A stretch of 64,000 bases of DNA. It comes from Alphaproteobacteria bacterium. GTDB taxonomy: Bacteria; Pseudomonadota; Alphaproteobacteria; Micavibrionales; UBA2020. The position numbers and the translations under genes are program-made. The stretch is taken from NCBI GenBank assembly GCA_965279315.1, contig OZ257145.1, positions 1,485,536 through 1,549,535 on the forward strand, given 5' to 3'. The first letter of the stretch is position 1. Every line of letters starts with the position of its first letter. The notes under the pieces are model-generated. The model made no database searches. It had not been told where the DNA came from and worked only from the letters and a program-made list of their open reading frames with translations. Below, piece by piece: positions 3,885-55,463 of the stretch.

Positions 3885-4801
3885 GCCTTCGCTGTTTTAC
3901 GTGCCGACCATTTCGCCTTCAATCTGGCGAAAGGTTTTTCCAGCACATGCCAGACAGGCACAACGGCAAGGCCGATCAGCAATCCCGCCACCGTCGAAAT
4001 CACGATGGAAACAAGTGTGCCGAGGTCACGCATCGCAAGTTCCGCAGCGGGAATGCCATGCAGCACGATGCCGCCACCGACCGAGAACATGGCTGCGGTG
4101 CCGACGACAGATAATGTCTTCATCAAATACGGCACGCATTTCAGGATGCCGATGCCAAGTTTCTGTACGGACTTCTTCGGCTTCTTGGCAAGGTACATGC
4201 CAAGGTCATCCAGCTTGATGATGCAGCCGACAAGGCCATAGACGAAAACAGTCATGCCGATGCCGACGCCGGTCAGCACGCCCGCCTGTACCATCAGCGT
4301 CTTTTCCTTCACCGCGCCCAATGCGACCGCGACGATTTCGGCGGAAAGAATAAAATCCGTGTTCACGGCTTCGGCGATTTTCTTTTGCTCGACTTCCATC
4401 AATTCTTCGGCACTGCGCTGTCCCGCCTGGCGCACTTCGCCGGCATGTGCCGCATCCTCGACGGTCGGCTTCAGCGCATGAATGACTTTTTCCGCGCCTT
4501 CATAGCACAGGAACGCGCCGCCCAGCATCAGCAGCGGCACGATCGCCCATTCGGCGATAATGCTGAGGATCAGCGCGGCGGGGATCAGGATGCATTTGTT
4601 CTTGAACGAGCCCTTGGCCACGCGCCAGACGATGGGCAGCTCGCGTTTCGGGTCTATGCCGACCAATGCCTGCGCATTCACGGCAAGGTCGTCGCCCGCG
4701 ATGCCGGCGGTTTTCGTGGCCGCAACCTTCGACATTGCCGCGACATCGTCGAGCAGCAGCGTAATGTCGTCGAGCAGCGCCAGCAAACCGCCAAAAGCCA
4801 T
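3881..4801 (-). CDS. DUF808 (YedI-like) inner-membrane protein, paralogue 1
   Basis: 306 aa from MAFGGLLALLDDITLLLDDVAAMSK..GDDLAVNA..KGSFKNKCILIPA..GGAFLCYEGAEK..DFILSAEI..KLDDLG..GTAAMFSVGGGIVLHGIP. GGGAGA precedes ATG 4801. Family assignment is from memory of YedI/DUF808 motifs. Confidence 0.85.
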   Translation of the reverse strand: MAFGGLLALLDDITLLLDDVAAMSKVAATKTAGIAGDDLAVNAQALVGIDPKRELPIVWRVAKGSFKNKCILIPAALILSIIAEWAIVPLLMLGGAFLCYEGAEKVIHALKPTVEDAAHAGEVRQAGQRSAEELMEVEQKKIAEAVNTDFILSAEIVAVALGAVKEKTLMVQAGVLTGVGIGMTVFVYGLVGCIIKLDDLGMYLAKKPKKSVQKLGIGILKCVPYLMKTLSVVGTAAMFSVGGGIVLHGIPAAELAMRDLGTLVSIVISTVAGLLIGLAVVPVWHVLEKPFARLKAKWSARKTAKA

Positions 4802-4865
4802 GTCAGGAATCTCCCTTAATTTTCGGGCATAGATTATCGCATTACCCGCGTGCAGGGAAGCGTTG

Positions 4866-5966
4866 TTACGGCGCGGTTTTCGGCGGTTTTGGCGCGGGAA
4901 CCGGCGCAGGTGCGGGCGTGTTGGCGGCTTCAACCTTGGGTGCCGCCGCCGCATTCAGGTCGGCCTTCACATCCGGCATGTTCGCAAGGGCAGGGGTTGC
5001 GGGCGCTTGTTCGGGCGCAGCGGGCGCGTTGTCATTCGCGGGCGATTTTTTAGCGAACAGTTTTTCGCGCGTGCTGGTGAAAAACGCGCCGAGACGTTCC
5101 AGCGGGCCTTCCAGTTTTTCCATGATCGGGTAAGTCGCAAAACTCGCCGCCAACCCGACCGCACCCATGATGAGATGTTCGGCGACAGGCTGGATCAACG
5201 GCAGCGCGGGCACATGCGCAACGGCGGCGGCCAGCAACGCCGTGCCGCCCGGGATGCCCATCAGCAGCAATTCCCCGCCGACAAGGAACAGCGCGGCAGT
5301 GCCGATCACCGAAATGCCCTTGACCAGTTTCGGCATCGCCTTGCCCAAACCATTCCCGATGCTGCGCGATATTTTGGCGAGCGGCTTGTCGCCCTCGCGT
5401 TTCGCCAGCCATTTTCCGGCGGCTTCAAGATTGATGATGCCGCCGATCACGCCATACAGCACGCCTGTCAGCGCAGCACCCGTGGCCGCCATCACGGCCA
5501 GCTGCGTCAGGATCGGCGCGCCGGCCACGACGCTGAGCGTCAGCACGGTGATTTCCATCGACAGGATCGCATCGACCTTCAGCGCGCCCGCGATTTTTTC
5601 TTTTTCGCTCTCCACATGTTTTTCGCCATGTGCGTGGCCGTGACCGCCATGGCCATGACCCTTGCCGCGCAACTGCTCCATCGCTTCGGCGGTCAGGAAC
5701 GCGCCGCCGACGGCCAGCATCGGCAGGATCGCCCAGGGCGCGGCGAAGCTGACCAGCGTCGCGGCGGGGATCAGCACGGCCTTGTTCAGCAGCGATCCCT
5801 TCATCACCTTCAGAAGGGCAGGGAAATTGCGGCCGGGCGGCAGGTTCAGCAATTGCTTCGCGTTCACCGCCACGTCATCGCCGATGATGCCGACAGCCTT
5901 TGGTACCGCAACGGATGTCAGCTGCGTGGCTTGTGCGACCAATGATGAAAAACTGCCCAAAGGCAT
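4866..5966 (-). CDS. DUF808 (YedI-like) membrane protein, paralogue 2, with a His-rich loop and a Pro/Lys tail
   Basis: 366 aa from MPLGSFSSLV. Same block order as paralogue 1 (GDDVAVNA, KGSLLNKAVLIPA, GGAFLTAEAMEQ, DAILSMEI, GTAALFLVGGELLLMGIP). Carries the insert GKGHGHGGHGHAHGEKH. Confidence 0.8.
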   Translation of the reverse strand: MPLGSFSSLVAQATQLTSVAVPKAVGIIGDDVAVNAKQLLNLPPGRNFPALLKVMKGSLLNKAVLIPAATLVSFAAPWAILPMLAVGGAFLTAEAMEQLRGKGHGHGGHGHAHGEKHVESEKEKIAGALKVDAILSMEITVLTLSVVAGAPILTQLAVMAATGAALTGVLYGVIGGIINLEAAGKWLAKREGDKPLAKISRSIGNGLGKAMPKLVKGISVIGTAALFLVGGELLLMGIPGGTALLAAAVAHVPALPLIQPVAEHLIMGAVGLAASFATYPIMEKLEGPLERLGAFFTSTREKLFAKKSPANDNAPAAPEQAPATPALANMPDVKADLNAAAAPKVEAANTPAPAPVPAPKPPKTAP

Positions 5967-7509: not shown

Positions 7510-8004
7510 ATGTTCAACAAGATCCGCAAAGCGGGCGAAGACTTCACGCTGAATGGCCTGACGTCTTTCGTCTCCAAATATCTGTCGAAACCGGAAGCGT
7601 CGACCGAACAAAACAAGGAATTCGCAGGCGTGACCGGCCTTGCGGGCGGCAACCTGCTGCGCGCCGTCGGCATCATCGGCACCGGCATCGCCGTCGTCTC
7701 GCTGCTCGCAACGCCTGTCGGCCTTGCGACGGTGGGCACGCTGGCGCTCGGCACGGCCTTTGGCGCGGCGGGCTTGTTCGGGCAGGGCATGATCGACGGC
7801 GGCGACAAAGCGACGAACCTTGTATCCGGCGCGCGCGAAGTGCGCGGCGAGATTTTCGGCGATGCGCTGGCGGATCTTAAAAGCTGGAGCAACAAAAAGC
7901 TCGGCACAAAATTCGGCCTTGCCGCATCGCGCGACGCGCAAGTGCAGCCCGCCGTACAGCCGGTTGTGACGCAACAGGCCAAACCGCAGAAAAACCAGCC
8001 GTAA
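7510..8004 (+). CDS. Hypothetical membrane protein (164 aa)
   Basis: Gly/Ala-rich hydrophobic core GVTGLAGGNLLRAVGIIGTGIAVVSLLATPVGLATVGTLALGTAFGAAGLFG (about 2 TM). C-terminal Pro/Gln/Lys tail ..QQAKPQKNQP. No family recognised. Confidence 0.55.
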   Translation: MFNKIRKAGEDFTLNGLTSFVSKYLSKPEASTEQNKEFAGVTGLAGGNLLRAVGIIGTGIAVVSLLATPVGLATVGTLALGTAFGAAGLFGQGMIDGGDKATNLVSGAREVRGEIFGDALADLKSWSNKKLGTKFGLAASRDAQVQPAVQPVVTQQAKPQKNQP

Positions 8005-8014
8005 GGGGTTTCCC

Positions 8015-8527
8015 ATGTTAAAACTGACACTGTCGGCAACCGCCGATGATGCCGGCAATATCGGTGCGTCCCGCGTGGTCGAGGCCGATGCCAGCGCCTA
8101 TGGCAACGAGCTGGCCGCGCTGCAGGCGGCGTCAAGGCTGATGGACAAGCAGGGCCTGGATGACTTGCGCGTCACCTATGGCAACGGCGTGGTCAATCTG
8201 TTCAAGGGCGATGACCTGGCGGAAAAGGCGGACGAGCTGTTTGACCGCGCGAGCGCCTTCAGCCTGCGCCAGCTGCCGAGCCTCACCGTGCCCGAACTTG
8301 CGTTCGGCGAACCCGACCGCGCGCGGAACATTCAGGAAGCGGCGCACAGCGCGCTGCGCATCGCACAGAAATTCAACCGCAAGGTTTCCTTCCAGTTCAA
8401 CAGCATCGCCGTTGCGGGCGTGGAGCCGAAAGCCGAAATCACGAAAAAAGATATCGAGGCGGTCGTGGATACCTACAGCAAAGCCTCCAAGGCCTTTTAC
8501 GCAGGACGCGGCGGCTTCAAGGCCTGA
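8015..8527 (+). CDS. Hypothetical protein (170 aa)
   Basis: Starts 11 nt after the previous stop, so probably co-transcribed. Soluble-looking sequence, no family recognised. Its 3' end overlaps the convergent DUF808 paralogue 4 by 31 nt. Confidence 0.5.
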   Translation: MLKLTLSATADDAGNIGASRVVEADASAYGNELAALQAASRLMDKQGLDDLRVTYGNGVVNLFKGDDLAEKADELFDRASAFSLRQLPSLTVPELAFGEPDRARNIQEAAHSALRIAQKFNRKVSFQFNSIAVAGVEPKAEITKKDIEAVVDTYSKASKAFYAGRGGFKA

Positions 8528-43296: not shown

Positions 43297-44874
43297 TCAC
43301 GATGCCGGTTTTGGCTGCATCGGGCGCGGTAGTGGAACCATGATCGTGCGCGGGATGTTCTTGAGCGCGGGCTCGACCGCCGCGATGTCGACGCCGTGGC
43401 GCGCATTGGCCGCAACATAGTCGATTTTCCGCACATCGGTGATAAAAGTCTGCTGCAGCTTGGTCATCAGCACGGGCAGGGCGGCGTTGTCGGGCTGCAG
43501 CTTGATGCCGTCCATCAGCGCGGTCTGCAGCGCGCCATAGGCGCCGATCATGGTCTGGGGCGTGATCTTGCCATAGAGGGCGAAAGCGCGCTCCTGCAGC
43601 ATGGCGCTGGCGTTCCAGGCGCGCACCCTGGCCAGCCCCGCCTTTTCCTTGTCGGTCAGCGGGGCGTCGCCCTGCGGGCCGCGCTTGGCGGCCTGTTCGG
43701 CGGCAGTGACGGTGCGGCGGAATTCCTGCGCGCGGATGAAATCGGGGTCGGCACCGGCCAAAATCTTCAGGGTGCGGAGCTGCGCAGGCGTCTTCGCATC
43801 CTCCAGCATGACGGTATAGCCCACGATGCTGCCGGTCAGTTCCTTGGCGTCCATGATTTTAAAGTAAAACGCCTGCGCCTGGCTGTCGTTCATGGCGCGG
43901 AAGGCGGGCAGGCCCATTTTCACAATCTGGCTTTTCATCTCCGCCAGCACGGGCGGGGAGAAGTGGAGCGGGTCGCCCACCAGCTTTTTCCGCCAGTCCG
44001 ACACCGCGTCGATGGCGGTCAGGTCGGCCTTGCCCGCGCGGATCAGGTCGCCGATCCCGCCCACATCCGCCAGCGCCTCCTTGTTGTACCGCAGGGCGAT
44101 AAATTCCCGCACGGTCGCGCTGTTGCGGGCGGCGTTGGGCTTTTTCAGTTCCTTGTCCATCGCGTCCTCGTCAAACCCCTGCATCGGGTAGCGGGAGTCG
44201 AGGCAATGCCAGGATTCATGCGTGTTCACAAAGGCGATTTTCTGCTGGAGCGTCATGCCCGGCATGGTGAAGGGCAGGGCATGGCCGGAGGACGGGACGA
44301 TCACGCAAGCCTCGCCCGCCGCACCCGTCTGGTTGAGGAAGGCGGCAGGGTTCTGGGTTTTCACGAGGCCGAAGGCGAATTTGTGGAAGTTCGCCATGTT
44401 CCCCGCCACGATGCGTGCACGGCTGGGCTCGAACTCCACATTTTGCTCCCCCAGCATCATCTGGACGATGGCAACGGCGGGCAGCCCCAGCGCGGTGCCG
44501 GCATCGAAACGGGCGGGGTCGAGCACCACGGCGCGGTCATGCAGCCCGTGCATGTGCTGGAGGCTCAAGGTCAGGCGTTCGCTGAAGACGTTCAGGTCGC
44601 GGGAATAGGTGTCGCCGGTCTGGATTTTGGATGCCATGAATTCGGTGCGGGCGGCGTCGATCAGGGCGATCCGCACCTCCATGCTGTATTCCAGCGCGCG
44701 CAGGTCGGGCGGGGCGGTTTCGGTCACGGCAGCCGTATTGCCGTTCGGGGCGGCAGGCGCGCCGGTTTGCGCGACGGCAGGCGTCATCCCGCCCAGCAAG
44801 ATGGTCGTCAGCGCGGTCGATGCCGCGAATTTTCGCCAGACGCCCGACAGCGTGCCTTTGCGGGTGAGGCTCAT
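43297..44874 (-). CDS. Exported hypothetical protein with an HExxH motif, paralogue A
   Basis: 525 aa. Signal-like ..ASTALTTILLGGMTPAVAQT. ACVIVPSSGHAL, FVNTHESWHCLD, YNKEALADVGGIGDLIR. Aligns end-to-end with the upstream gene. Confidence 0.6.
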   Translation of the reverse strand: MSLTRKGTLSGVWRKFAASTALTTILLGGMTPAVAQTGAPAAPNGNTAAVTETAPPDLRALEYSMEVRIALIDAARTEFMASKIQTGDTYSRDLNVFSERLTLSLQHMHGLHDRAVVLDPARFDAGTALGLPAVAIVQMMLGEQNVEFEPSRARIVAGNMANFHKFAFGLVKTQNPAAFLNQTGAAGEACVIVPSSGHALPFTMPGMTLQQKIAFVNTHESWHCLDSRYPMQGFDEDAMDKELKKPNAARNSATVREFIALRYNKEALADVGGIGDLIRAGKADLTAIDAVSDWRKKLVGDPLHFSPPVLAEMKSQIVKMGLPAFRAMNDSQAQAFYFKIMDAKELTGSIVGYTVMLEDAKTPAQLRTLKILAGADPDFIRAQEFRRTVTAAEQAAKRGPQGDAPLTDKEKAGLARVRAWNASAMLQERAFALYGKITPQTMIGAYGALQTALMDGIKLQPDNAALPVLMTKLQQTFITDVRKIDYVAANARHGVDIAAVEPALKNIPRTIMVPLPRPMQPKPAS

Positions 44875-46466
44875 AATCCCCTTCCTTTCGCGCGGAAGGG
44901 TTTCAGGGCGGGGTCGGCCGCCACGATATCGACGCCGCGTTTCAGGTTGGCCTCGACGTAATCGGTGTCCTGCACCCGCCAGACGAAACTTTCCTGCAGC
45001 TTGGTCATCTGCGCGGCATAAAGCGGGTTGCGGGGGTCTGATCTGGTATGGGCATGCAATTCATCCTGCAGTGCGCCATAGGCCGCAGCGAGCGTCACAG
45101 GCGTGATGCGGCCGCTATCCTTGAACGCGCGGTCCTCCAGCAGTTGCGCGGCGTTCCAGCTGCGCAACGCGCCTGCCAGTTTGATCTCGGCGGATGATAG
45201 CGGCCCTGCGCCGGGGTCGGCCGGCTTTTGCCAGTAATACTGGAAGAAATCGATGGCCTTGGCGGCTTCGGGATCGGTCTTGGCGGCCTCCAGCCATTGC
45301 AGGCGTTCGGGCACGGTGCCTTTTTCCAGCTTCAGGTTGATCTGGAGGCTGCGGGCGCTCATGCCGTACTGGTCGGTCACGTCGAAATACAGCTGCTTTG
45401 CCGCCGCATCGTCGAGACGGTGGAAGGCGTCGATGCCCATCTCGTCAATCTTCGCCTTGAAGCCGTGCAGCACGGGCGCGCTCAGGTGCTGGATGTCGTT
45501 GGGATAGCGCATCCGCCACGCCACGATTTTGTCGATCAGGCCGGTGTCATAGCCATCCTGCCGGATCATGTCGCCGATTGCGCCCACATCGGCCACCGCC
45601 TCTTTCCGGTACTCCATCGCGAAAACGCCGAGCGCGGTCAGGTTGGCGATCTTGGACATCAGTGTGCCTTGCGGCACCGCCGCCAGTTTTTTGGGATCGA
45701 AGCTGCGCAGCGTGTATTTATCGTCAAGGCAGTGCCAGCCTTCATGGCGGTTGGTGAAATTCACCTGTTCGCGCGCGTTCAGGCCGCGAATATCGATCGT
45801 CAGCGCGTGGTCGGATGACGGCACGATGACGCAGGCGGCGGGGTGCGTGCGGCTGGTGTTCATCATGGCGAAGGGGTCTTGGGAAAAGGTCTGCACGCCA
45901 TACCGGAAGGCATAGGGCGCGGCGGCCTTGCCCGCAACCGTCTCTGCCATCTCGCCCGTCGGCGTCAGTTTTTGTTCGGTCAGCAGTAAGCGCACGGCCT
46001 GCGGCGCACTAAAGCCGAGCGCCATCGCCACATCGAACTTGCCGGGGTCGATCACCAGCACGCGGTTGTGGATATTGGCGCGGTCGGATTTCAGGAACCG
46101 CGTCAGCCGGTCCTGCAGCCCGTCCAGTTCCTGCGAATAGCTGCCGCGATTGTTCAGTTTCAGCACCTCGCGCCGCGCCTGCTGCATCAGGGCGGCATTG
46201 ATGCGGGCGCGCCGTGCCTCTTCCTTGGCCGGCAATATAACAATGTCGTCCATATCTATTGTCCGGGTGGCGTCATCGCGCGGCGGGGGATCGGCGCTGC
46301 CGGGTGCGCCGGCGTCCTCGATCTTCTGCGTATGATCTGGCTTCGGCACGCTGGTGCAGCCTGCGGCCGCAAGGCTTGCGCCCAAGGCGGCACGGCGCAC
46401 GAAAACCCACCATGACGATGTCAGGCTGGTGGTCTTTTTCAGCGATGTGACGTCTGTTTTCGCCAT
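44871..46466 (-). CDS. Lipoprotein-like hypothetical protein with an HExxH motif, paralogue B
   Basis: 531 aa from MAKTDVTSLKK. ..GASLAAAGC lipobox-like. ACVIVPSSDHAL, FTNRHEGWHCLD, YRKEAVADVGAIGDMIR. Its stop overlaps the paralogue A start (ATGA). Confidence 0.6.
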   Translation of the reverse strand: MAKTDVTSLKKTTSLTSSWWVFVRRAALGASLAAAGCTSVPKPDHTQKIEDAGAPGSADPPPRDDATRTIDMDDIVILPAKEEARRARINAALMQQARREVLKLNNRGSYSQELDGLQDRLTRFLKSDRANIHNRVLVIDPGKFDVAMALGFSAPQAVRLLLTEQKLTPTGEMAETVAGKAAAPYAFRYGVQTFSQDPFAMMNTSRTHPAACVIVPSSDHALTIDIRGLNAREQVNFTNRHEGWHCLDDKYTLRSFDPKKLAAVPQGTLMSKIANLTALGVFAMEYRKEAVADVGAIGDMIRQDGYDTGLIDKIVAWRMRYPNDIQHLSAPVLHGFKAKIDEMGIDAFHRLDDAAAKQLYFDVTDQYGMSARSLQINLKLEKGTVPERLQWLEAAKTDPEAAKAIDFFQYYWQKPADPGAGPLSSAEIKLAGALRSWNAAQLLEDRAFKDSGRITPVTLAAAYGALQDELHAHTRSDPRNPLYAAQMTKLQESFVWRVQDTDYVEANLKRGVDIVAADPALKPFRAKGRGL

Positions 46467-46675
46467 TACATCCGGTCGTTCAATAAAAAAGCGATTTATA
46501 ACCGCCTGAATCTCCAAGGGGAATCATCCGAGCCTATATTATACTATACATAATTAAGGATTCGTGTATTATGTCGAACGCTTGACCAAAAACATATTGA
46601 AAAATAACGATTTTTCAATAGGATGCAGCGCAACAAAACAACAATAACGACTCAAAACGATTCAGGGCGGAAAAT

Positions 46676-49560: not shown

Positions 49561-50805
49561 TCAGCCGGGGTTGTTCTCGCCCTGTTCGGCGGCGGCGGGC
49601 TTGTTCTGGCCGGCCTCGCCGCACATGATGAAGGCGCGCGTGGCGGCGAAGGGGCCGATCGTTTCGAAAATCGCGACCATGCCGAAGACCAGCGCCGATA
49701 CCTGCGCGCCCATGCCGGGTAGCAGCTTGCTGAGCGTCGAGGCAAGCCCGATCGCCATGCCCGCCATCGGGATAATGAGCAGCGATGCCGCCGCCGCCTG
49801 ATTGGTCTCGACCGTCGTGAAGCGGGAGGCGATGAAAACGCCCGCGGTTTTCGTGACACAGCGGATCACCACCAGCAGCACGGGCGCGATGCCCGCCATC
49901 ATCAGCGCATGCAGGTCGATTTTCGCGCCCGCCAGCACGAACAGCGCGATGAAAAACAGATCGCCGCCCTCGCCGAAACCGACCTTCGACAGGTTGGATT
50001 TGTTTGATTCAAACCAGCGGGTGGCGATGCCCATCACCAGCGGCGCGAACAATCCCGACATGCCAAGCATGCTGCAAACGCCCAGCGTGACCATGACCGC
50101 GCCGATCACGACGACGAAGCGGTAATGTTCGTCCTCCTCGCGGAAAATGCGGGCGATGCGCACGGCGCACCAGGCGGCAAAAATGCCGACAACCGCCGCG
50201 CCGAACAGGCGGTAGGCGGGCACAAGAACCGCGGCCGAAGCCGCGCTGGTTTCCGGCGCCATCGCAAAGGGCAGCACCGCGGAAAACACGATGAAGGAAA
50301 AGAGGTTGTTCATCGCTACCAGAGATTTTGCCAGCGACGTGACCGTGCCTTTCGCGCGCATTTCCTCTGCCACATGGACCAGCACGGCGGGGGATGACGA
50401 AATGGCAATCGCGCCGATCAAAGCCGCAACCGTCCAGCTGTTCCCGAGGAATTTTACCGCAAGCGTCACGCCCGCGAAGGTCAGCAGGCTTTCGAGGATC
50501 GCGGTCAGCATGATGCGCTTCGAGCGCAGCATCGCCTCCGGATGCAGCATGTTGCCCAGCTTATAAAGGATCAGGCCCAGCGCGATGTCGATAATGACAT
50601 ACGCGTCCTTCATCATATCGGCGGTAATCAGGCCAAGCCCGTGCGGACCCGTCAGGAGCCCCAGCAGCATAAAGGCGGTGATTGTGGGCATCAGGTGGAT
50701 GCGGTTCGCAATCAGCCCCCCTGTGACGCCCAGCAAGAGAAGCATGCCAAAAGCCAGCATCGCGTTCGGGTGCAGGTCGGGGATATAGGTCAAGAAGGCT
50801 TCCAT
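49561..50805 (-). CDS. Cation:proton antiporter (CPA1/2, Na+/H+ exchanger family)
   Basis: 414 aa, ~12 TM, N-terminal MLAFGMLLLLGVTGGLIANRIHLMPTITAFMLLGLLTGP typical of Kef/Nha-type exchangers. Confidence 0.8.
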   Translation of the reverse strand: MEAFLTYIPDLHPNAMLAFGMLLLLGVTGGLIANRIHLMPTITAFMLLGLLTGPHGLGLITADMMKDAYVIIDIALGLILYKLGNMLHPEAMLRSKRIMLTAILESLLTFAGVTLAVKFLGNSWTVAALIGAIAISSSPAVLVHVAEEMRAKGTVTSLAKSLVAMNNLFSFIVFSAVLPFAMAPETSAASAAVLVPAYRLFGAAVVGIFAAWCAVRIARIFREEDEHYRFVVVIGAVMVTLGVCSMLGMSGLFAPLVMGIATRWFESNKSNLSKVGFGEGGDLFFIALFVLAGAKIDLHALMMAGIAPVLLVVIRCVTKTAGVFIASRFTTVETNQAAAASLLIIPMAGMAIGLASTLSKLLPGMGAQVSALVFGMVAIFETIGPFAATRAFIMCGEAGQNKPAAAEQGENNPG

Positions 50806-50937: not shown

Positions 50938-51453
50938 TTAAATTTCGCGTCCGCTTTGGTGATCCTGATTGAAATAGCTTTCTTCGCTGCCCGTGTTGCT
51001 GGAGCGGTAGCTTTTCTGGTAGTCGCGGGCGAGCGTTTCAAGGTCTTCGACGGTGCGCGACGATACGGCGTCGGATACGCCCTGACCATCTTCCATCGCG
51101 TCGTCTTTAATATGCTCGTCATAAACCTCCGAACCGTCGAGGCGCAGGCCGGCCGATTTCCAGTCCTCCTTGCCGCCGACATAGTCGGAGACATCGGTAT
51201 AGCCAAGACCTTCCAGGATTTCGGCAGCCTTCGTCGAAGCCGCACAATCGGCGCTCGCGCAATAGGTGACGATTTTCAAGGATTTGTCGGTCAGTTGTTT
51301 GGGGGCTTCCGCAGCCAGCGTTTCCAGCGGCATCGACAGCGCGCCGGGGATGTGGCCATGGTCATATTCGGATTTCGGCAATGCCTCGATGATGGCGTAA
51401 TCTTCGCCTGAAGACATCAGCTTGTTCAGCTCGTCACGTTTGATCGGTTGCAT
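50938..51453 (-). CDS. Rhodanese-domain protein with an acidic C-terminal extension
   Basis: 171 aa from MQPIKRDELN (GGAGGA 5 nt upstream). EYDHGHIPGAL, IVTYCASADCAAS active-site loop region. ~70-aa extension of unknown function. Confidence 0.8.
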   Translation of the reverse strand: MQPIKRDELNKLMSSGEDYAIIEALPKSEYDHGHIPGALSMPLETLAAEAPKQLTDKSLKIVTYCASADCAASTKAAEILEGLGYTDVSDYVGGKEDWKSAGLRLDGSEVYDEHIKDDAMEDGQGVSDAVSSRTVEDLETLARDYQKSYRSSNTGSEESYFNQDHQSGREI

Positions 51454-51547
51454 GGAATCCTCCATTGCCCTTTTAATATGGGCTGTTCGTTGACGGGTTG
51501 CAGGTGTCCAACGAATGGCGGGTAAAGAGGGTTCCCCTGAAATGAAA

Positions 51548-51574
51548 GAAGCCGGGCTTCATCAGCCCGGCTTC
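51548..51574 (-). terminator. Terminator-like hairpin after the small Cys-repeat gene
   Basis: GAAGCCGGGC-TTCATCA-GCCCGGCTTC, then TTTCATTT on the minus strand. The stem is nearly identical to the 50883 hairpin. Confidence 0.5.
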
Positions 51575-51598
51575 TTGAATCACGCTAAAGCGATAAGC

Positions 51599-51751
51599 TT
51601 AGCCGCCGCAGGAACCGGATTTTTCCTTGTTCGTGCCGCAAGAGCCCATGGTCTCTTCTTTTTTCGCTTCCGTGCCGCAAGAGCCGGTTTTGGGAGCGGT
51701 CGTGGAACAGGAGCCTTTTTCGTCTTTTTTCAGTTGTTCTTGGCTGGTCAT
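51599..51751 (-). CDS. Small cysteine-repeat protein (50 aa, 4x G-S-C)
   Basis: MTSQEQLKKDEKGSCSTTAPKTGSCGTEAKKEETMGSCGTNKEKSGSCGG. AAGGA ~9 nt upstream of ATG 51751, own terminator hairpin. The longer track ORF to 51994 lacks an SD and crosses the divergent promoter region. Confidence 0.45.
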   Translation of the reverse strand: MTSQEQLKKDEKGSCSTTAPKTGSCGTEAKKEETMGSCGTNKEKSGSCGG

Positions 51752-52024
51752 GGCAATTATCCTTATGTTGGGTTGCTCAACGACGCCGCATACGCGGTCG
51801 TCACGGGAGAGGATATAGCCCCCGAAAACCCCTTGTCCACCCGCGATGTCCGGTATTCCGGCGCAGGCCGTCCACCCCCCTGATATCATGAGATATATAT
51901 CTTTGTTATAATTTCCATAAATATTGACCTCATCCTGAAAAAAACAGGCAAATCCGCCATCCGGCTGCTTCAGCCGGATGTGGCATACTGGCATCGTCCG
52001 GGATTCGCAAAATGGAGTTCAAGC

Positions 52025-52864
52025 ATGTATGGCCGCCTGTTTTATTTCCTGATGCCGCTGGTCATCGTGACCGCCATCATCGGCTTTTCCGCACTGGCCG
52101 AAAACGACCATGCGGGCATGACGCATGAAGAGCCAGCCGTTGAAAAACATGCCGCGGGGTTGCAGGCGCAAGTCACGCCCGATACGCTGGTGCGGGGGCG
52201 CGACAGCACGTTTACGCTGATGCTGACCAAAGGCAACACGCCCGTGTCGCTCGCCGCGCTGGAGGAACGCCATACCCAGAAAATCCACCTGCTGGTCGTC
52301 GATGAAAGCATGGTCGATTACCATCATGTACATCCCACGGCGGGCAGCGATGCCGGCAGCTATACTTTCGCCTTCACGCCCAACACGGCGCGCAATTATA
52401 TGCTCTATGCCGATGTGAAGCCGCTGAATGGCGAAGCACAGATGATTGCGGTGAAATTAAACGGCGGCGCGCCTTGCGCAAATGACTGCCTCGACAAATC
52501 CGCAACCGACCGCGCGACGGTGGGCGATGTGACGGGGCAGGTGGTGTTTGACGGCAAGACGGTCAAGGCAGGATCCCCCGTAAATGCCGAAGTCACGCTG
52601 ACCGGCGCAGATGGCAAGCCGCTCGCCGACCTTGAACCCGTCATGGGAGCCTATGGGCATATCGTTGGTTTCTACGAAGGCTTCAAATCCGTCGCCCATA
52701 TGCACCCGATGGGGGCGGAGCCTGAAAAACCCGAAGACCGCGGCGCGTCGCCTGTCAAATTCATGCTGCATCCCGATCATCCGGGTTACCTGAAATACTT
52801 CGTGCAGATCCGCCGTGGCGGGAAGGATGTGTTCCTGCCTTTCGGCCTCACGATTGAAAAATAA
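52025..52864 (+). CDS. Exported hypothetical protein with two His-rich (HxHP) repeats, candidate metal-binding protein
   Basis: 279 aa from MYGRLFYFLMPLVIVTAIIGFSALA (signal/anchor). Repeat 1 ..KIHLLVVDESMVDYHHVHP..GSYTFAF; repeat 2 ..YGHIVGFYEGFKSVAHMHPMG..YLKYFVQI. Confidence 0.6.
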   Translation: MYGRLFYFLMPLVIVTAIIGFSALAENDHAGMTHEEPAVEKHAAGLQAQVTPDTLVRGRDSTFTLMLTKGNTPVSLAALEERHTQKIHLLVVDESMVDYHHVHPTAGSDAGSYTFAFTPNTARNYMLYADVKPLNGEAQMIAVKLNGGAPCANDCLDKSATDRATVGDVTGQVVFDGKTVKAGSPVNAEVTLTGADGKPLADLEPVMGAYGHIVGFYEGFKSVAHMHPMGAEPEKPEDRGASPVKFMLHPDHPGYLKYFVQIRRGGKDVFLPFGLTIEK

Positions 52865-53729: not shown

Positions 53730-54017
53730 TTAGTGGATATCGTCGAAGTTACGCTCGTGATTGATCTCGGGGTTCAGGCGTTCTTCCTCTGTCAGGTCAT
53801 CGAATTTCTTGGTGACTTTATCGGCCTTCACCATTTTCTTGATGCCGCGTTCTGACCCGTAGAAAGCGTCACCCTCGAATTTTTCTTGCGCGCGGCGGTC
53901 TTCTTCATGGTCGACAGGCTCCGGCTGCGCTTCAAGGTTCTCGAAATCGAGACCGTTCAGGTGCAGCGTCTTGCGTTCGGTTTCCGTTGTATTTTCAGGG
54001 GTTTTGATGATGGGCAT
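53730..54017 (-). CDS. Hypothetical small acidic protein (95 aa)
   Basis: MPIIKTPENTTETERKTLHLNGLDFENLE.., Glu/Asp-rich, no family recognised. Confidence 0.4.
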   Translation of the reverse strand: MPIIKTPENTTETERKTLHLNGLDFENLEAQPEPVDHEEDRRAQEKFEGDAFYGSERGIKKMVKADKVTKKFDDLTEEERLNPEINHERNFDDIH

Positions 54018-54764: not shown

Positions 54765-55463
54765 TCAGCTGATCAATAACAGGCGCGGCGGGCGGCCGTC
54801 AACGGTGTCGGGCGCGCGGTGGATGCAGGGCGCGACGGGGCTGCCCGGATATTCGACCGCGATGCGCCACATATTGCCGATGCCGAAGGAGTATCGCACA
54901 GCATCCGGCAGCGGGGCGTAATGCAGGTCATAGCAATTCTCGCGCAGGTATTCCCCGAAATCGCCGCCGCCTTCCGCCGCGAATAAATCCTGCAATTTTT
55001 CCAGCGTGGCGGGATCGTCGATGCGGCGTTGCGCGGAGGCATTGTCCAGCCCCTCGCTCGCCGCTTCGTTGTAACTGCACAGGTAGGTATCGGCGGCAAC
55101 CGGCGCGCGGTCGGCATGGAAGGAATAAACATCCGTCGGCACCGCATTGCTATCATCGCGGGAATAGCGCGGCACGCATTCAAGGCTGGGCTGTAATCCG
55201 CGTTCCTGCAGCAACCGGCGGTCGGCCAGCAGCATGGCGGCGGCAATGCGCCCCTGTTCGCTCAGGCGCAGGCGCAGGCTTTCAATCGCTTCTTCGTCCA
55301 GCGACACAATATCTTTCCCGCCCTGCAGCAACGCCGCGATTTCATCGAAATTGCCGGGCAGTTGCCGCGCCCAGCAGATCGCATTCACCTCCGGCCCGAA
55401 GGATGCGTTGACCAGCGCATCGAAACTGTCGACGACGCGTATGCGGCTTGTGGCGGGAGTCAT
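54765..55463 (-). CDS. Hypothetical protein (232 aa)
   Basis: Tightly packed between the PBP (TAATG overlap) and GNAT (1-nt gap). Conserved-looking FHADRAPVAADTYLCSYNEAASEG. Family not confidently recognised. Confidence 0.55.
   Translation of the reverse strand: MTPATSRIRVVDSFDALVNASFGPEVNAICWARQLPGNFDEIAALLQGGKDIVSLDEEAIESLRLRLSEQGRIAAAMLLADRRLLQERGLQPSLECVPRYSRDDSNAVPTDVYSFHADRAPVAADTYLCSYNEAASEGLDNASAQRRIDDPATLEKLQDLFAAEGGGDFGEYLRENCYDLHYAPLPDAVRYSFGIGNMWRIAVEYPGSPVAPCIHRAPDTVDGRPPRLLLIS

Follow-up and report, generated by a model that had tools for sequence, protein, structure and literature searches.

A 64,000-nucleotide stretch of an alphaproteobacterial genome (contig OZ257145.1, Micavibrionales; hereafter the window) carries, on its minus strand at 51599-51751, a small gene for a 50-residue peptide built around four G-S-C units. 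The gene is real, a small, monocistronic coding sequence kept by purifying selection, and a chance open reading frame (ORF) is effectively excluded. Its product founds an undescribed family of peptides of 49–64 amino acids, in which G-S-C-[G/S] units, usually four and rarely five or six, are joined by Lys/Glu/Ser/Thr/Gly linkers. The evidence for this unusual gene is solid, while its function is read from composition and weak context; we tentatively favour, at somewhat less than an even chance, a cytoplasmic soft-metal thiolate buffer or chaperone that is metallothionein-like in function and not in family.

The small gene and its peptide family

The coding sequence at 51599-51751 (minus strand, stop codon included) is supported by translation, homologues and coding-type substitutions, and its product is MTSQEQLKKDEKGSCSTTAPKTGSCGTEAKKEETMGSCGTNKEKSGSCGG. 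Retranslation reproduced exactly the 50-amino-acid peptide and the four G-S-C units, three of them GSCG, of the original prediction, which had been made from the letters of the window. The cysteines stand at residues 15, 25, 38 and 48 (spacing 10/13/10) in the units GSCS, GSCG, GSCG and GSCG. The DNA repeat described at the same time is also real, in that the 15-mer CGTGCCGCAAGAGCC is present twice in the gene, at 51632-51646 and 51671-51685, against an expectation of 0 from 100 shuffles. In the mechanically compiled ORF list the peptide frame runs up to an ATG at 51994, giving 131 amino acids. This upstream extension is not conserved, and a homologous locus, L007, combines an identical peptide with an unrelated upstream translation. 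The start was therefore placed at 51751, where a Shine-Dalgarno sequence precedes the ATG, the promoter lies inside the 51994 extension, and the extension is without conservation. The codon usage of the gene is unremarkable, with AAA and GAA preferred somewhat above the level of the long genes of the window.

A word-indexed protein search returned 7 close clusters of 49-53 amino acids, in which all four G-S-C units are invariant. When 1.84 billion representatives were searched exhaustively with a profile, 16 matches resulted, 14 of which are true members (clusters) of 52-64 amino acids, or longer through miscalled starts. The other two, P0107 and P0108, were rejected as spurious, their sequences being repetitive 'ISTHAPRTGSD' translations, which we take to be translated CRISPR repeats. 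About 20 homologues of 49-64 amino acids retain all four G-S-C-[G/S] units. A genome scan located six peptide loci in metagenome-assembled genomes (MAGs) labelled Alphaproteobacteria, Rhodospirillales, 'Bdellovibrionales' and Patescibacteria, the last probably mis-binned. Since NCBI taxonomy files Micavibrio under Bdellovibrionales, and one homologue of a neighbouring gene was found in a Micavibrio sp. MAG, the carrier clade is Micavibrio-like. By these searches, the family is small and confined to uncultured Micavibrio-like and Rhodospirillales MAGs.

The substitution pattern is that of a coding gene. Over 12 loci, nucleotide differences at codon positions 1/2/3 number 799/591/1234, i.e., there is a third-position excess, and the indels among the peptide genes are in frame only; a whole extra G-S-C unit was gained in three homologues (L009, P0097 and P0099). 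The invariant Gly, Ser and Cys residues vary synonymously, with TCT, TCC, TCG, TCA and AGC all in use for Ser. Between the window and L007 the coding sequences specify the identical peptide with three synonymous codon changes (one of them AGC to TCA), and the upstream and flanking DNA has diverged. Lack of conservation, or a substitution pattern unlike that of coding DNA, had been named at the outset as what would speak against the gene, and neither was found. L007 lies at 8001-8153 of JAQSDV010000004.1 ('bacterium D1-2020 MAG006'); its promoter-distal DNA and neighbouring proteins are ~70% identical to those of the window, and the peptide is far more conserved than its neighbours. The window therefore belongs to another, related genome.

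The exact peptide, common to the window and L007, is absent from a collection of 15 billion proteins, suggesting that the gene is uncalled in its source genome, and named relatives are labelled 'hypothetical protein' at most. Pfam and NCBIfam gave no family match at E<=1, and a tblastn search of the PLSDB plasmids gave nothing relevant. A scan of JGI metagenome contigs with profile-derived patterns and a degenerate DNA pattern yielded 0 confirmed loci; the broad family alignment, A5, was too variable for seeding such a scan. A literature search on GSCG/KTGSCG motifs, on rhodanese with a Cys-rich peptide, and on Micavibrio with metallothionein found nothing relevant.

The composition of the family was determined on 23 members, and is S 17%, K 16.6%, G 15.9%, T 9.2%, E 8%, C 8% and M 5%, with R, F, W, Y and I all at zero and His at 1%. 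The net charge ranges from -1 to +6, and the grand average of hydropathicity (GRAVY) from -1.07 to -1.48. In these members, 87 of 100 cysteines lie within GSCG or GSCS, successive cysteines are 10-14 residues apart, and the last one is 0-2 residues from the C-terminus. Conservation also extends beyond the Cys units, with K30 and K31 invariant and the segments PKTGSCG and KKDEKGSC strongly conserved; the four units are therefore not interchangeable copies. The C-terminal ends vary (GSCS, GSCG, GSCGA, GSCH, GSCC, TGCC). The Gly-Gly end, offered as a hint in the original prediction, does not hold family-wide, occurring in 6/23 members only, and a ThiS/MoaD-like C-terminal GG was rejected for this reason; the beta-grasp of those proteins also has no counterpart here, as no fold is predicted. 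AlphaFold2 modelling of the peptide gave a predicted local distance difference test (pLDDT) score of 52 and a predicted template modelling (pTM) score of 0.13, and the peptide is predicted to be disordered. Inspection agreed with the earlier reading that there is no signal peptide, and the peptide is therefore cytoplasmic.

Expression signals and gene context

The AAGGA reported ahead of the ATG was found at 51764-51760 (feature 51760..51764, minus strand), 8 nt before the start codon, and AAGGA or AAGGAG occupies the same position in all loci. About 60 nt upstream of the ATG, a consensus scan picked up the promoter-like element GTGGACAAGGGGTTTTCGGGGGCTATATCC (51811..51840, minus strand), with a -35 hexamer TGGACA at 51839-51834 and a -10 hexamer CTATAT at 51818-51813. 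This element is nearly invariant, spacer included, across the alignment of the window's clade. The pattern [CGT]T[GT]GAC[AC]-N13-17-C[CT]ATAT was scanned over the window and L001-L022 (23 sequences), and has one match each in 16 of them, always upstream of the peptide gene. Loci without this pattern include L012 and L014 of a second clade (L012, L014 and L023-27), where the promoter is different (…GTAGAAT) but the order of hairpin, A/C-rich stretch and Shine-Dalgarno sequence is the same. The spacer, with the motif GGACAAGGGNTTTTC, is as conserved as the hexamers (GGACAAGGGnTTTTC…GGCTATAT), though the proteins are only 40-80% identical between loci. It includes an imperfect inverted repeat, GAcAAgg/ggTTtTC, which overlaps the -35 and may thus be an operator. 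The sigma-32 consensus of alphaproteobacteria is CTTG-N17-CYTATNT, and the peptide promoter seems to fit it about as well as it fits sigma-70.

A stem-loop of the 5′ untranslated region (5′ UTR), GACGaCCGC-GTAT-GCGGCGTC, was obtained in the centroid fold at 51782..51802 (minus strand), starting ~10 nt after the -10. A hairpin is present at the equivalent position in 11/11 loci folded singly, each of different sequence, and the one in L023 is visible by eye (positions were recorded for the window, L001, L003, L005, L007, L009, L011-L015 and L023). The stems are GC-rich and unrelated among loci (e.g., GGAGGCG/CGCCUCC, CCGGGA/UCCCGG, AGGGUG/CACCCU), and are followed by an A/C-rich unstructured stretch and then the Shine-Dalgarno sequence. 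The hairpin looks like a conserved mRNA-stabilising element. RNAalifold returned no consensus structure for the 5′ UTR, since hairpins of unrelated sequence could not be put in register by MAFFT.

The GC hairpin reported past the stop codon is an intrinsic terminator, AAGAAGCCGGGC / GCCCGGCTTCTT (51540..51576, minus strand), which begins 22 nt after the stop and consists of a 12-bp stem with GC-rich arms at 51576-51565 and 51557-51546, a 7-nt loop and a T-rich tail, TTTCATTTC. A comparable GC hairpin and T-run directly follows the stop in every homologous locus, whichever gene comes next. Rfam gave no family match (best E=0.64). The signals together point to an mRNA of ~270 nt that is monocistronic, hairpin-capped, and probably stable and well expressed.

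The neighbours named in the original prediction, i.e., a rhodanese, a cation antiporter and a His-rich periplasmic protein, were confirmed. Gene order in the window's clade runs from an HD_4 phosphohydrolase through (Na/H exchanger), (rhodanese) and peptide to the divergent His-rich protein and then Ank or T2SSF genes; the Na/H exchanger of the window lies at 49561-50805 (minus strand, PF00999).

The His-rich gene (52025..52864, plus strand), characterised through its homologues, invariant columns and an AlphaFold2 model, encodes an exported protein of 279 amino acids, the start at 52025 being chosen because P0008 is 100% identical. The protein has no Pfam domain. Its AlphaFold2 model (pLDDT 88.6) comprises an N-terminal hydrophobic helix and two Ig-like beta-sandwiches, for which Foldseek returned generic Ig tandems only. 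In the family H83, H88, H101, H103, H225 and H227 are invariant and H212 is nearly so; the His clusters on the Ig-like domains read HxxxxH…HxH and H…HxHP. The gene is divergently paired with the peptide gene in the window, L001/2/8, L003/4, L005/6, L007, L009, L011, L013 and L020-22, and the pairing persists in L013 and L020-22, where the rhodanese is missing. Two distant homologues lie in metal-related surroundings. The one in Arenimonas (L019, 5001-5909) overlaps the stop of an OEP-CzcB/CusB-ACR_tran operon near MerR and a YHS/HMBD P-type ATPase, and the one in Chthoniobacterales (L018, 5001-5930) follows an RND pump and itself carries the PF19335 HMBD, a domain present in 13/89 homologue matches of the His-rich protein. 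A search for Cys-rich small ORFs near the distant homologues found none. Because homologues stand at the 3′ ends of Czc/Cus-type RND operons or are fused to HMBD, the family is linked to heavy-metal efflux, and of the external evidence it is this link that mainly supports a metal role of the locus. The protein, of an uncharacterised tandem-Ig family with links to RND and P-type-ATPase metal-efflux clusters, is a candidate new periplasmic metal-handling accessory protein.

The single-domain rhodanese (175 amino acids; 50938..51465, minus strand; PF00581, E=1e-16) begins 133 nt downstream of the peptide stop, past the peptide terminator. Alignment of 7 syntenic orthologues showed an invariant dual-Cys loop, TYCxSxDCxxST, and the enzyme looks catalytically competent. 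It scores far under the cut-off of every NCBIfam rhodanese subfamily. Its C-terminal tail of ~65 amino acids is acidic and has a conserved AVSSRTxEDLE motif. A rhodanese follows the peptide gene in the window, L001/2/8, L003/4, L005/6, L007, L009, L010 and the P0103 contig, that is, in 8 of ~15 distinct loci, 130-160 nt away and on the same strand.

Other arrangements were found elsewhere. A Micavibrio sp. MAG (L016/17) has kept the His-rich gene, with neither peptide nor rhodanese; in the peptide slot, flanked by HD_4 and the His-rich gene, stands a 63-amino-acid ORF (MADNMEDMAQQEQIRQDQLRQEQLKQEQ…; L016 4632-4823 and L017 2833-3024, both minus strand), which is Cys-free, Q/E/R-rich and probably a coiled coil. 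The peptide gene of the second clade always comes after a Sel1-repeat/bPH_2 membrane protein of 444-447 amino acids (L012 1486-2820, L014 2698-4041, L023 4468-5802, all plus strand) and before OEP/MFS or TetR-EmrA-EmrB-OEP efflux genes. In L015 a Sel1/AAA protein precedes the peptide. In L012, a Rhodospirillales MAG, the OEP gene after the peptide has as its neighbour a gene for a secreted 110-amino-acid His-rich protein without a Pfam match (4796-5128, minus strand; …HEEHWDRHPE…HAAHDYGGHRE…NHHDHWDHQ).

The region between the divergent genes of the window contains a conserved AT-rich block at 51880..51935, TTATGg-N17-TATATC...GATATCAG, which includes a perfect 12-bp palindrome, AGATATATATCT, and is possibly a second promoter or operator. 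A perfect 10-bp inverted repeat, CATCCGGCTG-aag-CAGCCGGATG, lies at 51958-51980 just upstream of the His-rich gene and is not conserved in L001, while a conserved TGGCATACT (extended -10-like) stands 30-45 nt before the ATG of that gene. Visual inspection of the intergenic region for sites of the CueR/ZntR/MerR, CsoR/RcnR, ArsR/SmtB and Zur/Fur types gave no convincing conserved match, and no regulator gene was found near the peptide locus. Among the conserved ORFs close to the locus, a 95-amino-acid acidic protein (53730-54017, minus strand; syntenic in L001 and L009), a weakly DUF1826-like protein of 232 amino acids (54765-55463, minus strand) and two large proteins of 525 and 548 amino acids (43297-46517, minus strand) have no or marginal family assignment.

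What the peptide may do

In the function that we tentatively favour, the reduced peptide would be a multi-thiolate ligand of soft metals, most likely Cu(I), with Zn(II) or Cd(II) as further possibilities. The chain, being flexible, would close round a metal ion with its four invariant cysteines, nearby lysines may reduce the pKa of the thiols and balance the charge of the thiolates, and Met, which is frequently beside Cys, could supply thioether ligands. The peptide would then buffer cytoplasmic metal or pass it on, as a metallothionein or chaperone does. Its supply would come from a strong, conserved promoter through a hairpin-capped, terminator-ended mRNA, and its gene would be expressed back-to-back with that of a periplasmic His-cluster protein of a metal-efflux-associated family. 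The composition, which resembles that of metallothionein linkers, the lack of a predicted fold, the position of the second-clade gene ahead of outer-membrane-factor and MFS efflux genes, and the nearby His-rich secreted protein of L012 are consistent with this function. The thiolate metal binding suggested in the original prediction therefore stands as the best single reading, with indirect support from the metal-efflux-linked neighbour. However, the peptide is not a metallothionein by family, as there is no family match and Cys makes up 8%.

Several observations weigh against soft-metal buffering. The Cys density of 8% is well below that of typical metallothioneins, and the chelate effect would be weak because there are no CxC, CxxC or CC motifs and single cysteines lie ~12 residues apart. 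The near-invariance of the G-S ahead of every Cys would be explained more readily by a partner enzyme that recognises the unit than by plain chelation. One Micavibrio genome pairs the His-rich gene with the Cys-free ORF in the peptide slot, and the second-clade loci have the peptide without the His-rich protein (the rhodanese is also missing there). BipA, HD_4 and PBP1 are syntenic too, so that the support from context is weak and could reflect inherited synteny in one or two orders. No metalloregulator, CopA/CopZ or other metal gene was found in the regions of the 64-kb window examined. If metal binding holds, the peptide would represent a new bacterial metal-buffering architecture unrelated by homology to known families, i.e., single regularly spaced cysteines in a disordered Lys-rich chain, and would widen the search for 'metallothionein-like' products among the many missed small ORFs.

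A possible but less probable function is sulfane-sulfur carriage, in which the G-S-C-G thiols would take persulfide sulfur from the dual-Cys rhodanese and pass it on, holding it as Cys-SSH or as intramolecular trisulfides across cysteines 10-13 residues apart, in the manner of glutathione persulfide or of the DsrC arm. The downstream rhodanese with its invariant active-site loop fits this proposal, as do the small residues that flank every Cys and could allow the thiol to enter the active-site cradle of the enzyme. Micavibrio sp. L016 has lost the peptide and the rhodanese together and retained the His-rich gene. At the motif level, C-STTA-PKTGS-C of the peptide resembles C-RIAGL-PKPTG-C-V of the Archaeoglobus fulgidus DsrC arm, which forms a CysA-S-CysB trisulfide (bioRxiv 10.1101/2023.08.03.551783). 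In addition, the last Cys is near the C-terminus, as in DsrC, and the S-C-G unit resembles the Cys-Gly end of glutathione. However, the rhodanese is not beside the peptide in L013, L020-22, L012, L014 and L023-27, and the terminator between the two genes means that they do not form an obligate operon. The peptide has no DsrC/TusE domain, and BLASTP did not align it with the DsrC arm. The carriers of known sulfur relays are folded, and no other sulfur-oxidation or relay genes lie nearby. Sulfane-sulfur carriage, if true, would make the peptide a new kind of sulfur-relay component.

A more specific form of this idea, which we regard as rather unlikely, is that the peptide would take the place of low-molecular-weight thiols, its S-C-G units forming a ribosomally made, glutathione-like series that the dual-Cys rhodanese would load with sulfane sulfur as Cys-SSH or, as in the DsrC arm, trisulfides. 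It would then be the first free, disordered, gene-encoded persulfide or polythiol carrier, and could be especially useful to reduced-genome predatory Micavibrio-like bacteria, if glutathione synthesis is lacking there. Whether metal or sulfur is bound, the locus adds a conserved small gene whose exact sequence the protein collection does not hold.

It is improbable, to a further degree, that the peptide is a thiol redox or stress protein, i.e., a conditionally disordered hydrophilin-type chain whose cysteines serve as a sacrificial or reversible redox buffer or as a CP12-like disulfide switch. The GRAVY of -1.1 to -1.5, 16% Gly, predicted disorder, even core Cys count (4) and strong conserved promoter would suit such a protein, and an MsrB gene lies within 5 kb in L023 and L026. 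However, no linked partner, thioredoxin or peroxidase was found, five- and six-Cys variants do not suit fixed disulfide pairs, and nothing specific apart from composition speaks in favour.

Two further possibilities are both very improbable. The first is a precursor of a ribosomally synthesised and post-translationally modified peptide (RiPP), raised in the original prediction as an alternative, in which the abundant Ser/Thr and Cys of the repeated core-like units would undergo lanthionine, thioether or thiazoline chemistry; this was not borne out, since in ~15 distinct loci of five gene contexts the 5-8 kb around the peptide gene contain no LanB/C/M, radical-SAM, YcaO, MNIO/DUF692, or peptidase/ABC exporter gene, there is no leader/core split (the conserved part begins at residue 5 and ends with the last Cys), and no NCBIfam RiPP-precursor family matches. 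The second, a leader peptide or attenuator that senses Cys codons and regulates the gene downstream, or a small RNA of dual function with a secondary ORF, would accord with the short ORF, terminator and same-strand gene of most loci and with a ~270-nt transcript structured at both ends, but the gene downstream is not the same in all loci (rhodanese, HD_4 or OEP) and in L014 is a convergent TetR gene, the amino-acid sequence is conserved with synonymous variation beyond the Cys codons, which are dispersed and not tandem, and the terminator 22 nt past the stop has no evident antiterminator and no Rfam match.

Comparison with known systems

CP12, other disordered Cys proteins and hydrophilins are, like the peptide, small, very hydrophilic, Gly-rich and disordered, with four Cys. 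However, the peptide lacks the CP12 signature and paired-Cys spacing, its hosts are non-photosynthetic, and no partner enzymes were identified. Hydrophilins are defined by Gly >6% and high hydrophilicity, and with Gly at 16% and the GRAVY range given above all members fall within this definition, which is a compositional class and no indication of function.

The DsrC/TusE arm shares with the peptide its flexibility, two cysteines 10-11 residues apart, P-K-(x)-T-G-(x)-C before the second Cys, and a last Cys by the C-terminus. Sulfur relays start from rhodaneses, and the genomic link of the peptide to a rhodanese is a further point of likeness. In contrast, the peptide has no DsrC fold, four units instead of one arm, and no dsr or tus genes nearby, and the likeness amounts to a motif of 6-7 residues. 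PF04358, with its CysB-X10-CysA arm, gave no match at E<=1; the peptide is too short and disordered for this family, with only C-x8-9-PK(x)TG(x)C in common.

Phytochelatins, (gamma-Glu-Cys)n-Gly, and glutathione are similar in their repeating units of one Cys each, flanked by small or acidic residues, in their Cys-Gly dipeptides (S-C-G vs. gamma-E-C-G), in the variable unit number (4-6 in the peptide), and in thiols that serve both metal binding and persulfide acceptance. The peptide differs in being ribosomal and gene-encoded, in its Lys-rich spacers of 10-14 residues where phytochelatin units stand back-to-back, and in the lack of a phytochelatin synthase.

Metallothioneins (BmtA/SmtA PF02069, MymT and the eukaryotic ones) are likewise small, cytoplasmic, Cys-bearing and unstructured when metal-free, with Lys/Ser/Gly/Thr/Ala linkers, no aromatics, no Arg, and a soft-metal thiolate ligation that is presumed for the peptide. 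The low mass and the complete lack of F, W and Y in the 23 members agree with this class. The family match and the high, clustered Cys content do not: Pfam and NCBIfam were negative as described above, BLASTP against Synechococcus SmtA gave no alignment at E<=100, and CC is seen in two members only, at the C-terminus. Metallothioneins contain roughly 15-30% Cys, as against 8% in the peptide family, and the peptide replaces CxC, CxxC and CC by single cysteines ~12 residues apart as G-S-C-[G/S], with a fixed four-Cys core. In function the peptide would be closest to the metallothioneins and phytochelatins, with a distinct architecture of single, spaced cysteines.

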